Origin: Acidimicrobiales bacterium
GTDB taxonomy: Bacteria; Actinomycetota; Acidimicrobiia; Acidimicrobiales; SZUA-35
DNA: 64,000 bases
Assembly: GCA_028285495.1 (NCBI GenBank)
Contig: JANQPB010000014.1
Span: forward strand, 213,704 to 277,703
Direction of reading: 5' to 3'
This document shows positions 20,345-26,530 of this stretch, piece by piece. The notes beneath the pieces are model-generated. The model saw only the letters and a program-made list of their open reading frames with translations, searched no databases and had not been told where the DNA came from. Each line of letters starts with the position of its first letter. Position 1 is the stretch's first letter. Both the position numbers and the translations under genes were made by a program.

Positions 20345-21055
20345 GTGGTTTCGAGAGGGAAAACCGGAGCGGCGAGCCCCCGGCGGGGGCGGCTGCCGGC
20401 GGCGGAGCGGGAGGCCCGCGAGCGGGCCGTCCTCGACGCTGCGCTCGAGACGCTGATCGCCGAGGGCGTCGACCGGATGACGATGCTGGCGGTGGCCAAG
20501 CGGGCCGGGGCATCGAAGGAGACCCTGTATTCGTGGTTCGGGAGCCGCGAGGGCCTGCTCCGGGCGCTGATCGAGCGCAATGCCGACGTGTCGGCCGAGC
20601 GGGTCAAGGCCGCCCTCGCCCCCGGCCCGGCCGACGGCGACGGCGACGGCGACGATGACAACGACGCCGACCGGCCGCTCACCGATCCGGCGGAGACCCT
20701 CGTCGGCTATGCCATCGGGCTGCTCCGCCTGCTCACCAGCCCGCCGTCGATCGCCCTCAACCGGGCGGCGATGGGCGATGCCGACCTCGCGGCGGCGCTG
20801 CTGGCCGGTGGTCGCCACCGGGTCGGTCCGCTCGTCGAGCGCTATCTCGCCGACCAGGCCGAGGCCGGCCACCTCGATCTCGTCGTCGAACCGGGCCCCG
20901 CCTTCGAGCTGCTCTACGGTCTGGTGGTGCAGGACACGCAGATCCGGGTGCTGCTCGGCGAGGACCCACCCCCCGCCGACCAGCTCGAGCGACGGGCCCG
21001 CACCGCCGTTGGCCGCTTCCTCCGCCTCGCAGCCGAGGGCGAGCCGCCGACGTGA
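20345..21055 (+). CDS. TetR/AcrR-family transcriptional regulator
   Basis: TMLAVAKRAGASKETLYSWFGSREGL HTH. Confidence 0.9.
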   Translation: MVSRGKTGAASPRRGRLPAAEREARERAVLDAALETLIAEGVDRMTMLAVAKRAGASKETLYSWFGSREGLLRALIERNADVSAERVKAALAPGPADGDGDGDDDNDADRPLTDPAETLVGYAIGLLRLLTSPPSIALNRAAMGDADLAAALLAGGRHRVGPLVERYLADQAEAGHLDLVVEPGPAFELLYGLVVQDTQIRVLLGEDPPPADQLERRARTAVGRFLRLAAEGEPPT

Positions 21056-22089
21056 GCGACACCGAGCCGTACTTCGACGACGTCGATCCCTGGGCCCGGG
21101 TCCAGCTCGGGCTCGGCGTGCTCGCCGGCGTGCTCGCCGCCGGCACCGTCGCCTACCGCCTGCTCGGCCTCCCCTGGCTCGATGCCTTCTATCAGGTGGT
21201 CATCACGGTCACCACGGTCGGCTACGGCGAGGTCCTGCCACCCGATGGCGAGATGACCTCGAACTACCGGCTGGTGACGTCGATCCTGGTGCTCGTCGGC
21301 GTGGCCGTCGGCGCCTACACCCTCGGCGTCTTCTTCGAGGCCCTCATCGAGGGCCGCCTGTCCACACACCTCGGGAGGCTTCGCATGCAACGGGAGATCG
21401 ACCAGATGTCCGACCACATCGTCATCTGTGGCTTCGGACAGGTCGGGCAGGCGATCGCCGGGTCCATCCGGACCCACGGCGAGCCGGTCGTGATCATCGA
21501 CGTGGCCGAGGACATCCACGAGATCTGCGATCTCCCCACCATCCGGGGAGACGCCACCGACGACGAGATCCTCCGCTACGCCGGGATCACCCGGGCCCGT
21601 GGGCTGGTCACCGCGCTCGACACCGACGCCGGCAACCTCTTCGTCACGATCAGCGCCAGGACGCTCCACCCCTCGCTCTACATCGTCAGCCGGGCCAACG
21701 AGCGCTCCGCGGTCAAGAAACTGGAGTCGGCCGGCGCCGATCGGGTGGTCAACCCCCACCAGATCGGCGGCAGCCGGATGGCATCGTTCATGGTCCGCCC
21801 GAACGTGGCCGACTTCATGGGCGAGACGATGCAGGACGACCAGCTCGAGGTCGAGCTGTCCGAGCTGCAGGTCGGCAAGGGCAGCCGCCTGGCCGGGCTG
21901 AGCCTGAGCACCTCGGGCATCCGGGCCGCGTCCGGGGTGATCGTGCTCGCCATCCGCCGTCCGGACGGGACGTTCGTGCACCAACCATCGGCGTCGACGA
22001 AGCCGGCCGTCGGCGACGTGCTGATCACGCTCGGAACGGCCGACCAGCAGTCGGCCCTCGCCTCCTGGGTGTCGACGTCGTCCCGCTGA
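21052..22089 (+). CDS. Potassium channel (Ion_trans_2 + RCK/TrkA-N + TrkA-C)
   Basis: TTVGYG selectivity filter, ICGFGQVG RCK motif, GDAT. Confidence 0.9.
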   Translation: MSDTEPYFDDVDPWARVQLGLGVLAGVLAAGTVAYRLLGLPWLDAFYQVVITVTTVGYGEVLPPDGEMTSNYRLVTSILVLVGVAVGAYTLGVFFEALIEGRLSTHLGRLRMQREIDQMSDHIVICGFGQVGQAIAGSIRTHGEPVVIIDVAEDIHEICDLPTIRGDATDDEILRYAGITRARGLVTALDTDAGNLFVTISARTLHPSLYIVSRANERSAVKKLESAGADRVVNPHQIGGSRMASFMVRPNVADFMGETMQDDQLEVELSELQVGKGSRLAGLSLSTSGIRAASGVIVLAIRRPDGTFVHQPSASTKPAVGDVLITLGTADQQSALASWVSTSSR

Positions 22090-22141
22090 GCGGCGGGAAA
22101 CCCTCGGCGAGCCCATCGAGCCAGCACCTACGCTCGCCCCA

Positions 22142-22888
22142 ATGGCAGCCACGATCTCGGTCCTGATCGACCTCCCCGCCGAGCAGGCCTACCACGCGGC
22201 GACGGTGACGGCGCTCGACCACGCAATCGTCGCCGGCGGACACCGGGCCGACGTCCGGGTCGTTCCGACGGCCACGATCGACGACGCCGTGGTCGCCGAT
22301 CCCGGCGACGGCGTGGTGGTCGGACCGGGCTCGCCCTACGACGAGCCCGAGCGGGTGCTCGAGGTGATCCTCGGGGCCAGGGAGCGGGGCGTGCCCCTCG
22401 TCGGCACCTGAGGCGGGTTCCAACATGCTCTGGTCGAGCATGCTCGCTCGCTGGTCGGCATCGCCGATGCCGCCCACACCGAATACGGTTCCGGCGCGGC
22501 CGGGCGGGGCACACCCGTGATCTCGCTCCTGGCCTGCTCCCTGGTCGGGGTCGACATCGAGATCGAGGTCGCCCCCGGCTCGTTGCTCGACGACCTGCAC
22601 CGCCGCCACGGCGGGCCGGCCGACGATGAGCGACCGAGCCGCCGTCGGGAGCGGACCACCTGCAACTACGGGCTCGACCCGGCCATGCAGGCGATCGCCG
22701 CCGAGCACGGGATGCGGGTGTCGGCGATCGACGACACCGGTGAGGTCCGGGCCATCGAGCGGACCGACCATCCATTCTTCGTCGCCACCCTCTATCAGCC
22801 GCAGCTGTCGAGCGAGCCAGGCAAACCCCACCCGGTGCTGGTCGGGTTCGTCGATGCGGCCGTCGAGCGGGCCCGCAACCGCGGCTGA
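22142..22888 (+). CDS. CTP-synthase C-terminal-like glutamine amidotransferase, probable selenoprotein (Sec at TGA 22409-22411)
   Basis: ORFs 22142..22411 and 22517..22888 are one frame; PLVGT-[TGA]-GGFQHALVEHAR matches the GTCGGFQH nucleophile elbow; SECIS-like hairpin follows. Confidence 0.82.
22413..22447 (+). promoter_or_regulatory. Putative bacterial SECIS element
   Basis: Upper stem CAUGCUC/GAGCAUG with UGGUC loop starting 20 nt after UGA; lower stem GCGGG/CUCGC. Confidence 0.68.
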
Positions 22889-22933
22889 CGGCATGGCGGC
22901 CGGGCCCGGTTCGACCGACCGCTCGACGCCGGG

Positions 22934-24049
22934 CTAGGCGGCGACGCAACCGGCGGCGATGCTGGAGATCGCCGTGCCCCGGCGGGGCTCCCGGACCTGG
23001 TGACGGTCGTAGCCGTTGGTGACGTAGCCGAGCGAGAGGCCGGTGGCCGGGTCGGCCCAGGCCAGCTGGCCGCCGGCGCCGTTGTGGCCGAAGGCCCCCG
23101 GTGACACCGCTCGGCCGAGGCCCCGGATGTTCGACAGGCCGTCGTCGCCGGCCAGGATCAGCCCGAGCGAGCGGTTGGCTGGCACGCCGGCGGGGTCGGG
23201 CAGCGTGTTGCGGACGTTGCCGGTGGCGTCGGCCAGGATGTCGGGATCCCAGATGCCGTTGGGGTTGTGCAGGAGCTCCTGGTAGAAGAGCGCCAGGTCC
23301 CTGGCCCTGGCGTAGCCCCCGCCGCCGGGCACGCCGACGGCCCTCGTGTCGGTATCGTTGAACCGGAGCACGACGTCGTCGGTCACCTCGGTCAGCGGGA
23401 GCTCCCGGACACCGAAGGCCGCCTCGAGCTCGTCCGGCGTCGCCGGTTGGCCGACGAGTGCGAGGTCGGCGATGCCGTCCTGCTGCTCGGGGGCGAGGCC
23501 GAGGATGCGGGGCAGGCCGGCCGGGGTGGTGATGCGGGTCGCCACCTCGTCGCGGTAGTCGCCGCCGGTCACCCGGTCGATGATGGCCGCCAGCACCCAG
23601 TGGGCCGACGTCGGGTGGTACTCGAAGCGGGTGCCCGGCTCCCAGTTGAGGCGCCAGCCAGCCATGCGGGTCAGCCGGGCGCCGGGGTCGGCCCAGTCGG
23701 GCGGTCCGAGCGGGGCATGAGGGAAGCCGGAGGTGTGGAGCATGACCTGCTCGACGGTGATGGCGGCCTTCGTGTCGTCGCTCCCGAACTCGGGGACGTA
23801 GTCGACGACCGGGCGGGTGACGTCGACCGCCCCCTCGGCCATCAGCGTCCAGATCACCGAGGCGACGAACGGCTTGGTGGCCGAGAAGATGCAGTAGCGG
23901 GTGTCGAGGTCGGCGTCGCCGAAGACCTCCTCCGCCACGATCCGGCCGTCGTGGGCCAGGGCCACCTGGGCGGAGGGCAGGAGTCCCTCGTCGACCTCTC
24001 GCCTGGCTCGGGTCAGGAGCCGGTCGACCGCTGCGTCATCGATCGTCAT
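22934..24049 (-). CDS. Serine hydrolase (beta-lactamase class C-like esterase)
   Basis: FSATK (SxxK), LHTSG, PGTRFEYH, FGHNGAGG. Confidence 0.88.
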   Translation of the reverse strand: MTIDDAAVDRLLTRARREVDEGLLPSAQVALAHDGRIVAEEVFGDADLDTRYCIFSATKPFVASVIWTLMAEGAVDVTRPVVDYVPEFGSDDTKAAITVEQVMLHTSGFPHAPLGPPDWADPGARLTRMAGWRLNWEPGTRFEYHPTSAHWVLAAIIDRVTGGDYRDEVATRITTPAGLPRILGLAPEQQDGIADLALVGQPATPDELEAAFGVRELPLTEVTDDVVLRFNDTDTRAVGVPGGGGYARARDLALFYQELLHNPNGIWDPDILADATGNVRNTLPDPAGVPANRSLGLILAGDDGLSNIRGLGRAVSPGAFGHNGAGGQLAWADPATGLSLGYVTNGYDRHQVREPRRGTAISSIAAGCVAA

Positions 24050-24205
24050 GGCCGTCACGTTACGTGGCCGATCGCTGCCGATCGAGTTGGCGCCATGGCG
24101 AGACTGGGTGGAGCTACCCACCACTTTCTGACGATTCGGTGACATCGGGATCCGTCCCCGGCTCTCCGACGTCTTGTACGGGTGATGGTGGGCAAGACTG
24201 ACCCG

Positions 24206-26530
24206 ATGGACGAGCCAGTCGAACCCCTCGTGAGCGAACCGGTGGTGCCGGGTCGCCGCCTGGGTTCGAACTACGTCGTAGGCGAGCGGCTCGGTCGCGG
24301 CGCCATGGGCGTCGTGCACGAGGCCTCCACCCACGACGGCCGACCCCTGGCCGTGAAGTTCCTCCGGGCCGAGCTGGCCGCCGACCACAAGACCGTCGCC
24401 CGGTTCCTGCAGGAGCGGCAGATCTTCCGCAAGGTCGACCACCCCAACGTCGTCCGGGTCCACGATCTCGTCGCCGAGGGTGACGACCTCGCCATCGTGA
24501 TGGAGCGGGTGTCGGGCGGCGACCTGAAGCAGCGGATCGCCGAGCAGTCGCTGAACCCCCGCCAATCGATCGCCATCGCCACCGGCATCGCCGCCGGCCT
24601 CGGCGCGATCCACGGGGCCAGGGTGATCCACCGGGATCTCAAGCCGGCCAACATCCTGCTGACCCCCGAGCTGTCGCCCAAGATCTCCGACTTCGGTATC
24701 TCCCGCCTCGTGACCGAGGCGATGACCCGCACGTCGGCCACGATCGGCACCCCGATCTACATGGCCCCCGAGGCCGCCGATCAGCGTGGTGCCGATGCGC
24801 CGGCCGACATCTATGCGCTCGGCATCATCCTGTTCGAGCTGCTGATCGGCCAGCCCCCGTTCGCCGAGGGCGGCACCTTCGCCGTGCTGCGGGCCCACGC
24901 GATGGACGTGCCGCCCCGCATCGAGGGCATCCCGGCGGAGCTGTCCGACCTGATCGCCCGCATGCTGGCCAAGGAGCCGGCCGAGCGACCCGACGTCGTC
25001 GAGGTGCACGGGCGCCTCGCCGCGCTGATCCCGCAGATGGACGAGCGGGCGGTGCCGGCCGCGGTGCCGCCACCGGCCGGGTCGGGCGGCGAGGGGTTCG
25101 ATTCGCAGGAGACCACCGGGCCCCGGGCCAGCGGCGATCCGACGGTCGTCGGTGGCGGCGTCGGCCCATGGGCCGCCCCCGCTGCTGGCGCCGCTGGTGC
25201 CGCCGCCGGGTCGGCACCACAGCCGGATGAGTCCGACGAGCGGGCCGGCGCCATCGGCGCGGCCGGCGCCGGTGCGGGGCTCGCCGGGCTGGCGGCCAGC
25301 GGCGCGCTGCAGCGAGCCGGGGCCGACGGCGTTCCCGCCGACGCGGCCGAGACCGTGGTCGGGGCCGAAGCGCTCGAGGCGAGCGACCAGGTGCTTCGCA
25401 GCGAGGTGGCCGAGACGGTCGTCGACGGGGCTGGCGCAAGGTCGGCCGGACACGGCGCCCAACCGATGGCCAACAACCCGTCGTCGAGCTCGGCCGAGAC
25501 GGTCGGCTCGGGTCCGGGGGCCGACGGCGGGGCCGGTCGGTTCGGCGGTCTGCCGGGATCGGAGGCGCCATCCGACGGCGTGCCCTACATCGCCGGGCCG
25601 AGCGGCGCGGCGACGACCACCGGCGGGCTGCGCTCGCTGTTCCCCAACCGGATCCCCCGCCGGGTGGCCGAGGTCGGCCTGGCCGCCGCCTCGCTCGCGG
25701 CCGTGCTGGCCGTGGTGGCGTTCGTCCTGAACTCGGGCGACGGTGACGGCGACGGGACAACGGCGATCGGGAGCGAGAACACGTCGACGACCGGTGTGGC
25801 TGGCCCTGGCGTCGACGGCGACGGCAGCGGCGAGGACGGTCCGACCCAGTTCAGCAGCTCGCTCGACGACGGTGAGGGTGGCGCCGCGAGCGGAGGGGGC
25901 GACGGCGAGGGGGGCTCGTCGACGACGGCGACGACCGACCCGGCCGGGGGCACGAGCACCGAGCGGACCTCGACGACCAACGGGGCCAGTACCAGCTCGA
26001 CGAGCTCGTCGACGTCAAGCACCGGCTCCACCACCTCGTCGACCTCGACCACGTCGTCGACGACGTCGACCACCCGGCCGACCACGACGAGCCTCAGCAC
26101 CACCACGACCAGGCCGACGAGCAGCACGACCTCGACGTCGCTCAGCACCACCACGTCGAGCACGGCGATCGTGGCGGTCCCGATCCGGATCGTGAGCGGG
26201 CCGACGGTGAACGTGGTGAACGCCACGTCGTTCCAGTTCAACTACTCGACCAACGACGTGTGCGGCACCGGGAGCTTCAGCGTGACCGAGGTCGCCACCG
26301 GGGTGTCGGCCGGCTCGTTCTCGGGCCAGGACGTCTGCTTCGGACCGCTGCACGGCGGGTTCCCGGGGTTGGCGAGCAGCCCCGAGTTCCGCAACTTCGA
26401 CATCAAGCCGGCGACCGAGTATCGGGTGTCGATCACCGTGCGGGGGACGTCGCCCGGGTCGGGTGACACCAAGCCGGCGGGGTCCGGGTCCGACTCGACG
26501 TCGTTCCGGGTCACCACCGCAGCCGGCTGA
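24206..26530 (+). CDS. Membrane Ser/Thr protein kinase with Thr/Ser-rich extracellular stalk
   Basis: GRGAMG, AVK, HRDLKPANIL, DFG, GTPIYMAPE; one TM segment; start could be 24182-24206. Confidence 0.9.
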   Translation: MDEPVEPLVSEPVVPGRRLGSNYVVGERLGRGAMGVVHEASTHDGRPLAVKFLRAELAADHKTVARFLQERQIFRKVDHPNVVRVHDLVAEGDDLAIVMERVSGGDLKQRIAEQSLNPRQSIAIATGIAAGLGAIHGARVIHRDLKPANILLTPELSPKISDFGISRLVTEAMTRTSATIGTPIYMAPEAADQRGADAPADIYALGIILFELLIGQPPFAEGGTFAVLRAHAMDVPPRIEGIPAELSDLIARMLAKEPAERPDVVEVHGRLAALIPQMDERAVPAAVPPPAGSGGEGFDSQETTGPRASGDPTVVGGGVGPWAAPAAGAAGAAAGSAPQPDESDERAGAIGAAGAGAGLAGLAASGALQRAGADGVPADAAETVVGAEALEASDQVLRSEVAETVVDGAGARSAGHGAQPMANNPSSSSAETVGSGPGADGGAGRFGGLPGSEAPSDGVPYIAGPSGAATTTGGLRSLFPNRIPRRVAEVGLAAASLAAVLAVVAFVLNSGDGDGDGTTAIGSENTSTTGVAGPGVDGDGSGEDGPTQFSSSLDDGEGGAASGGGDGEGGSSTTATTDPAGGTSTERTSTTNGASTSSTSSSTSSTGSTTSSTSTTSSTTSTTRPTTTSLSTTTTRPTSSTTSTSLSTTTSSTAIVAVPIRIVSGPTVNVVNATSFQFNYSTNDVCGTGSFSVTEVATGVSAGSFSGQDVCFGPLHGGFPGLASSPEFRNFDIKPATEYRVSITVRGTSPGSGDTKPAGSGSDSTSFRVTTAAG

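Follow-up and report, generated by a model that had tools for sequence, protein, structure and literature searches.

A predicted selenocysteine codon at the nucleophile elbow of a stand-alone CTP-synthase-glutaminase-like protein from an Acidimicrobiales bacterium

The window analyzed here is a stretch of 64,000 nucleotides from an Acidimicrobiales bacterium (assembly GCA_028285495.1, contig JANQPB010000014.1, positions 213,704 to 277,703 of the forward strand), and the element under study is a gene on its forward strand at 22142–22888 that carries an internal TGA. Positions are those of the window throughout. The frame starts with ATG at 22142 and ends at a real stop, TGA at 22886–22888, its sole interruption being the TGA at 22409–22411. 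Mechanical calling of open reading frames (ORFs) returns two pieces in the same frame, 22142–22411 (89 aa) and 22517–22888 (123 aa, +); the second is the fragment that a gene caller would give 3' of the UGA and is no gene of its own. Read through, the frame encodes a 248-aa product to which homologues align end to end, with the predicted selenocysteine (Sec, U90) at the nucleophile elbow in PLVGT-U-GGFQH, a column at which homologues also carry TGA, and with LYQPQ in place of the QFHPE of CTP synthase. A predicted bacterial Sec insertion sequence (bSECIS) lies within the coding sequence at 22412–22452 (+), assigned from its fold and from published bSECIS constraints. The gene has a G+C content of 72%. 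The first-pass annotation of this DNA had described two ORF calls in one frame, separated by a single TGA at the position of the elbow cysteine, and the sequence is as it described.

We conclude that the locus very probably holds one intact selenoprotein gene in which UGA is read as Sec, and that the product is a stand-alone protein resembling the glutaminase domain of CTP synthase. This confidence, drawn from sequence comparison, concerns the identity of the gene and its decoding and does not extend to the chemistry. The best NCBIfam match is NF004836 (E 7e-60), with residues 4–240 aligned to model positions 2–227 of 228. The protein shares the traits of that family in being stand-alone, in matching from end to end and in its nucleophile motif, GxUxG within G-T-[U/C]-G-G-F-Q-H.

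A nonsense mutation or an assembly error at 22409–22411, leaving a pseudogene or two small genes, would account for the two ORFs that standard gene calling produces. The gene is also absent from 22 of 24 congeners searched, and a Cys-form homologue in genome G201 has a TGA at its Arg203 codon, so broken copies may exist in the family. Such a lesion is nonetheless extremely improbable here, given that six other genomes and all 80 of the fetched metagenome loci retain TGA at this column. Against the copy in genome G014, the ratio of nonsynonymous to synonymous substitution rates comes to about 0.2 both before the UGA (0.18 over 89 codons) and after it (0.22 over 158 codons). In addition, the next possible start codon after the TGA falls 3' of the conserved GGFQH...EH..R stretch, so that this stretch lies between the two. 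As for an assembly error, a Logan contig from sequencing run X1 (7030 nt) shows 0 differences over 22000–23000, X1 probably being the source sample and not an independent one.

TGA and Cys codons alternate at the nucleophile column, a pattern that had been put forward as a check on the Sec reading. Among 40 relatives searched, three have the gene (G014, G025 and G007, with 87%, 63% and 56% identity), all with TGA at this position. A draw of 400 genomes from the phylum contained 15 carriers, three with TGA (G088, G396 and G342) and 12 with TGC or TGT at the nucleophile, which brings the column totals to seven genome copies with TGA, the window included, and 12 with TGC or TGT. G088, flagged as unpublished, supplies a single row on which no conclusion depends. 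Scanning species genomes for GTCGGFQH recovered at least 594 relatives among 600 matched stretches, in diverse bacteria and some archaea, and scanning metagenomes for the same motif with TGA recovered at least 120 contigs. All 80 metagenome TGA contigs that were fetched encode read-through homologues (E ≤ 1e-3), with G+C contents of 0.40–0.74, about 90–110 open codons before the TGA and 140–150 after it.

The distribution of the two forms was followed on a quick IQ-TREE tree, unrooted and without outgroup, of 101 rows hand-picked for spread (17 genome copies, 5 database proteins, 34 of 68 full-length Cys ORFs and 45 of 57 full-length Sec ORFs), with the nucleophile column omitted. The Sec/Cys label changes at least six times on this tree, at least three of the changes being forced by starred branches, against a mean of 34 for shuffled labels.

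The G201 copy mentioned above (L041, G201:C90) is a Cys form, GTCAGFQH, whose in-frame TGA lies away from the Sec position, at a near-invariant Arg203 codon (DEI-TGA-IIELP), and probably reflects either a nonsense mutation of CGA to TGA or an error in sequencing. P0006, a full-length relative from the same clade as the window protein, found on one contig, reads Arg in place of the nucleophile (VVT-R-GVFQH), which a one-base change from TGA to CGA could explain, giving a dead paralogue. The chromosome of Streptomyces stoeckheimensis (NZ_CP169550.1) carries two Cys-form paralogues, L080 and L102, from different branches of the family.

The window genome (G000; 6.75 Mb in 45 contigs) holds the whole Sec machinery, all four components scoring above their curated cut-offs. 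selA (403.7 bits) adjoins selB (272.4 bits), and a further match to the SelB C-terminus lies in the same 629-codon frame. Both the selA and the selB frames are free of internal stops. selD (352.8 bits; G000:C34:101680-102603, minus strand, outside the window) contains one in-frame TGA, and the selenophosphate synthetase of this genome is, from its predicted reading frame, itself a selenoprotein. The Sec transfer RNA (tRNA-Sec) scores 64.8 bits against Rfam and is called by ARAGORN as tRNA-SeC with anticodon tca. The search for these four genes, suggested when the gene was first noticed, came out in favor of Sec decoding. Among other carriers, selA was found in six of six TGA-form and eight of 12 Cys-form genomes, and tRNA-Sec in five of six and eight of 12, respectively. 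Carriage of the gene shows no enrichment among genomes that use Sec, selA being present in 11 of the 15 family-bearing genomes of the phylum vs 262 of 400 overall. As an aside, selA in 263 of the 401 genomes of the Actinomycetota draw is well above expectation, in a draw that is even over families and not over species.

Directly after the UGA, the upper stem of the predicted element pairs CAUGCUC (22424–22430) with GAGCAUG (22436–22442) around the apical loop UGGUC (22431–22435), and the lower stem pairs 22412–22418 with 22446–22452. The spacing between the UGA and the apical loop is 19 nt, in agreement with the hairpin first described, with a G-containing loop about 20 nt downstream. The bSECIS model in the review PMC13188914 (Fig. 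2A legend) has an apical loop of 3–9 nt with G in its initial two positions, an upper stem of 4–16 bp, a spacing of 16–37 nt and a minimum free energy (MFE) of at most −7.5 kcal/mol. The window element, with a 7-bp upper stem, a 5-nt loop, G in the second loop place and energies of −8.9 kcal/mol for the upper hairpin alone and −18.9 kcal/mol for the 48 nt after the UGA, falls within all four constraints.

The same region was compared between Sec and Cys forms over 51 nt from the codon onward (87 Sec-form segments reduced to 78 distinct ones, and 92 Cys-form loci reduced to 89 distinct segments with the exact motif). The longest uninterrupted stem within nt 12–40 averages 6.94 bp in Sec forms vs 4.31 bp in Cys forms, and stems of at least 6 bp are found in 63 of 78 vs 17 of 89. 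Mean MFE is −9.48 vs −4.59 kcal/mol, despite the lower G+C content of the Sec forms (0.574 vs 0.608). Mann–Whitney tests give p of about 1e-19 to 1e-22, values that are overstated because related sequences are not independent. All four published constraints hold for 54 of the 78 Sec forms, compared with 8 of the 89 Cys forms. This test uses the energy of the whole fold in place of that of the upper hairpin alone, for which the −7.5 kcal/mol limit was uninformative (15 of 78 Sec vs 10 of 89 Cys forms pass) because the values of some 40 Sec forms are −7.4 or −7.0. The hairpin sequence varies by lineage at the same place, as in CAUACUC..GAGUAUG, CGUGCU..AGCACG and CGCGAUC..GAUCGCG. In a fixed register, the share of paired cells is 77.1% for Sec forms and 53.0% for Cys forms, while sliding the register by +2 or −2 leaves 54.9% paired.

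These features suggest a route of decoding. The hairpin at 22412–22452, with its G-containing apical loop 19 nt past the UGA, would recruit SelB with Sec-tRNA(Sec), the tRNA being charged via the genome's own selD and selA, and translation would end at the real stop TGA at 22886. Decoding of the UGA by other means, through a code in which TGA is sense across the genome or through near-cognate reading with Trp or Cys, is very unlikely. A close relative, the database entry P0002, was deposited with W at the TGA codon. Against this, both the gene under study and the channel gene upstream of it end in TGA, no internal stops interrupt the selA or the selB frame, the genome has the complete Sec machinery, and the hairpin is tied to TGA forms. 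Taken together, the pseudogene, split-gene and other-recoding readings leave a very small share of doubt. The proposal of the first-pass annotation that the TGA is a Sec codon within one gene is favored by the machinery, the Cys/TGA alternation and the TGA-linked hairpin alike, as far as sequence can indicate.

Several observations weigh against Sec decoding or the family assignment. The NF004836 score of 202 bits is under the curated cut-off of 260. RNA or proteome data for the gene were looked for and none were found, so that selenium in the product is inferred from sequence; among sequencing runs, no RNA run was listed with the stretch, and the sole run with it is probably the source sample. 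The TGA-form carrier G025 gave no tRNA-Sec match, its assembly being 81% complete in 920 contigs. The window hairpin, in a sequence this rich in G+C, is not significant when taken alone (z = −1.64, with 15 of 200 shuffles folding as well), and 24 of 78 Sec forms fail the SECIS test. Covariation in a fixed register is weak, with two pairs changing on both sides, which 102 of 500 shuffles reach; the pair count is weakly positive because the hairpins come in at least two registers. Of the conservation and covariation expected for the hairpin when it was first described, the association with TGA forms stood, and strict fixed-register covariation was weak. It is the comparative evidence, and not the window hairpin itself, that exceeds chance.

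The low NF004836 score is shared by the nearest relatives. When 60 homologues were scanned against NCBIfam, the 12 closest to the window protein (L023–L026, L123, L139, L148, L159, L183, L190, L196 and L198) scored 188.7–221.6 bits to NF004836, all under the cut-off, and 47 of the 48 others scored at least 260, the exception being L039 with 255.4. On the unrooted tree, the window protein falls in a clade of 16 rows, 13 Sec and three Cys, these proportions coming from a sample collected by motif searches that favor Sec forms in metagenomes. The 12 low scorers belong to this clade, as do the Cys-form database proteins P0004, P0005 and P0008. The branch that splits this clade from the other 85 rows has a length of 0.71 and a support of 100% in the SH-like approximate likelihood ratio test (SH-aLRT). 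In a collection of 5.8 billion proteins, 56 of the 120 best relatives are 136–154-aa fragments of the part after the UGA, with 54–73% identity. The two fragments that were inspected start six residues after the Sec position, and the nearest named ones come from metagenome-assembled genomes of Acidimicrobiia. Elsewhere in the family, the protein of genome G258 is identical to one in a Rubrobacteraceae record, and f47 groups with Streptomyces on the tree. Within the genus of the window genome, the gene is present in two of 24 other species, whereas selA is present in 24 of 24, and the gene is accessory.

Sec forms of this family had been annotated before, as the first-pass annotation stated (NCBIfam NF004836, PMC12013277 and the review PMC13188914). 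PMC12013277 (Xiao & Zhang 2025) describes a predicted "glutamine amidotransferase (COG0504, PyrG)" selenoprotein in Desulfosediminicola ganghwensis and reports TGA-containing and Cys-containing homologues of it, and the review (2026) lists the family with the Sec motif GxUxG, citing that work. The sequence in Table S2 of PMC12013277 has GTUSGFQH, CSL, C-S-Y and LFQPQ, and by these motifs it plainly belongs to the same family as the window protein. The available part of PMC12013277 does not discuss the lost triad or the function. The window copy is a new member, from a divergent and under-annotated clade, of a family whose Sec forms are already published. With the published family it shares a stand-alone length of about 230–250 aa, the fold of the CTP synthase C-terminal domain, Sec or Cys in G-T-[U/C]-G-G-F-Q-H, a hairpin right after the UGA, the cysteines of CSL and C-[NS]-Y-G, and L-[FY]-x-P-Q replacing QFHPE. 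It differs in its N-terminus (I-x-V-L-I-D-L vs I-G-I-I-G-D-[YF]), in reading LYQPQ at the triad position and in an insert of about 10 residues (153–166). A second, weaker NF004836 match in the window genome (C21:429022-429741, minus strand, 131 bits) has no stop and lies inside a 663-codon frame; its length makes the C-terminal domain of the genome's real CTP synthase the probable identity.

The AlphaFold2 model of the read-through protein, computed with the 101-row alignment, has a predicted local distance difference test (pLDDT) score of 95.4 and a predicted template modeling (pTM) score of 0.93. U90 lies between strand 86–89 and helix 91–105, that is, at the nucleophile elbow. The best Foldseek matches in the PDB are CTP synthase glutaminase domains, with template modeling (TM) scores of 0.80–0.86, and a phmmer search of PDB sequences gave only CTP synthases, the best being 9kao_A (E 1.8e-16). 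The Pfam glutamine amidotransferase (GATase) model PF00117 matches with 28.6 bits (gathering threshold 22.8), while models of full CTP synthase stay far below their cut-offs (87.7 bits vs 308 for NF003792 and 77.5 vs 462.75 for TIGR00337).

Compared with the CTP synthase glutaminase (PyrG; PDB 2vkt, 1vcm, 9kao, 1s1m), the protein keeps the fold, the elbow G-x-[U/C]-G-x-x-Q with Gln four residues after the nucleophile, the (S/H)-T-E motif, the HP-[FW]-F strand and the E-x-A-R helix (E99-x-x-R102 in the window protein). It differs in having no synthase domain within its 248 aa, in Sec replacing Cys379 and in Gln219 and Gln221 replacing the triad residues His515 and Glu517 (E. coli numbering, PMC9138612). 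Arg468/470 line the GTP cleft of the E. coli enzyme (PMC9138612), and these arginines are not kept; position 171 is R in 24 of 101 family members. The window family also has an extra Cys174 and Cys132.

Two other groups offer comparisons. Peptidase C26/PuuD gamma-glutamyl hydrolases have the same stand-alone class I amidotransferase fold and act as hydrolases, but they keep a Cys-His catalytic pair. The match to PF07722 (Peptidase_C26) reaches 17.1 bits, under the Pfam cut-off of 20.5, and the Foldseek TM score to PuuD (6vtv_A) is 0.64. The DJ-1/PfpI superfamily has a related fold with a reactive Cys at the nucleophile elbow, and in DJ-1 this Cys acts without a catalytic His, tuned by an acidic residue after strand 1. 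In the window protein, Asp10 and His18 follow strand 1, an analogy to be taken as a lead; no DJ-1/PfpI sequence or fold match was found among the Pfam and Foldseek matches listed.

The missing His-x-Glu pair, noted at first pass, is confirmed by HMMER alignments to PDB 9kao_A and 1vcm_A, in which Gln219 and Gln221 of LYQPQ lie under the His and Glu of FHPE. Across the 101-row alignment, the triad His position holds V (41 rows), Q (31), L (26), C (two) or I (one), and the triad Glu position holds Q (89), E (11) or R (one). His was thus found at position 219 in none of the 101 members. It had been proposed that a Sec nucleophile makes the His dispensable, but the His is absent from all 49 Cys forms as well, so it is the family as a whole, and not the Sec forms in particular, that has lost the triad. 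Sec may still be advantageous in a site without a base. Since the triad His is absent family-wide and the Glu from most members, the protein is not, from its aligned residues, a canonical glutaminase, and the label "non-redox hydrolase" given to it earlier is unproven.

The family has conserved residues of its own. Cys174 (101 of 101 members) and Cys132 (99 of 101) have no counterpart in the CTP synthase alignments, and Glu170 (99 of 101), His112 (96 of 101), His18 (94 of 101) and His95 (101 of 101) are likewise absent from them. The invariance of His95, as of residues 88–95 in general, is partly built in, most rows having been fetched with that motif. Glu114 of the (S/H)TE motif, shared with CTP synthase, is kept in 96 of 101.

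One possible chemistry, and the one favored here, is covalent catalysis, in which the selenolate of U90 would attack an amide or a gamma-glutamyl-like compound and form a selenoester intermediate. It is proposed tentatively, as a conceivable but less than probable reading of the conserved residues, because the elbow and the (S/H)TE motif are retained and the pKa of Sec is low (5.2 vs 8.3; PMC13188914). Such catalysis would need no canonical general base, or would use a relocated one, for which His112, His95 and His18 are candidates. The low pKa of Sec would weigh most where the site has no base.

Because the two extra cysteines, invariant or nearly so, are absent from CTP synthase, a redox or metal reading stays open. 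The main rival to covalent hydrolase chemistry keeps the same gene and decoding and takes the protein as a redox enzyme, in which U90 would pass through a selenenic acid or a selenenylsulfide, with Cys132 and/or Cys174 resolving it in a cysteine relay on a glutaminase scaffold without its former acid-base triad. This is a reasonable suggestion of somewhat doubtful standing. The conservation of Cys174 and Cys132 fits it, as do the loss of the triad His in every member and the repeated exchange of Sec and Cys on the tree, at least six times, and selenoproteins are mostly antioxidant or redox enzymes, Sec favoring redox cycling (PMC13188914). However, the protein lacks a UxxC/CxxC motif and any cofactor domain, the neighborhoods examined contained no redox partner, thioredoxin-like or other, and the nucleophile surroundings that glutaminases also have are retained, namely the family-wide G-x-[U/C]-G-x-x-Q and, in nearly all members, Glu114.

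Sec is a metal ligand in [NiFeSe] hydrogenase and formate dehydrogenase. A site of this kind in the window protein, with U90, Cys132, Cys174 and one conserved His as ligands, would draw on the three Cys/Sec positions and on the family-specific His18, His95 and His112. The residue spacing fits no recognized metal-binding motif, and the invariance of His95 comes partly from the fetching motif. A metal site is improbable. A broader proposal, that the family, most clearly in the LYQPQ clade, is not an amidotransferase and would hold a Sec/Cys90-Cys132-Cys174 (+ His) redox or metal center on a glutaminase scaffold, is unlikely on the residues compared, though a good deal less so than the metal site taken by itself. 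If true, it would be a new kind of selenoenzyme, and the LYQPQ clade would deserve its own family model.

The genes around the window copy are a TetR regulator (20345–21055), a TrkA-type potassium channel gene immediately upstream (21052–22089) and a convergent beta-lactamase-family gene (22934–24370). Further downstream, at 24182–26530 (+), the ORF listing shows a 782-aa frame that begins as an apparent Ser/Thr kinase (HRDLKPANILL) and continues in a long low-complexity tail rich in Ser, Thr and Gly. No conserved partner gene was found in the neighborhoods of 80 Cys-form loci (6-kb flanks) and of six Sec-form genome loci; among the latter, synteny with the window is seen only in G014, a member of the same genus. 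The only recurrent neighbor is a divergent LysR-type regulator beside 18 of the 80 Cys-form loci, mostly in actinomycetes, and none of the seven of these regulators that were scanned was above any specific NCBIfam cut-off. Fusions are limited to two single cases, P0122 (HAD hydrolase + GATase) and P0123 (dCache). In Streptomyces, Actinokineospora and Lentzea (L068, L075, L087, L102 and L118), the Cys-form gene adjoins genes for an EPSP-synthase-like protein, an iPGM-like metalloenzyme and ATP-grasp proteins. This arrangement, seen at these five actinomycete loci, may be a small biosynthetic cluster, which the clade of the window protein lacks.

For annotation, an HMM (hidden Markov model) specific to the clade would recover its members below the NF004836 cut-off, many of them stored as C-terminal fragments of about 137 aa, as selenoproteins. 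For the family as a whole, its wide distribution, its repeated swaps between Sec and Cys and the loss of the triad His throughout make it a tractable case for the study of a Sec nucleophile on a hydrolase scaffold.

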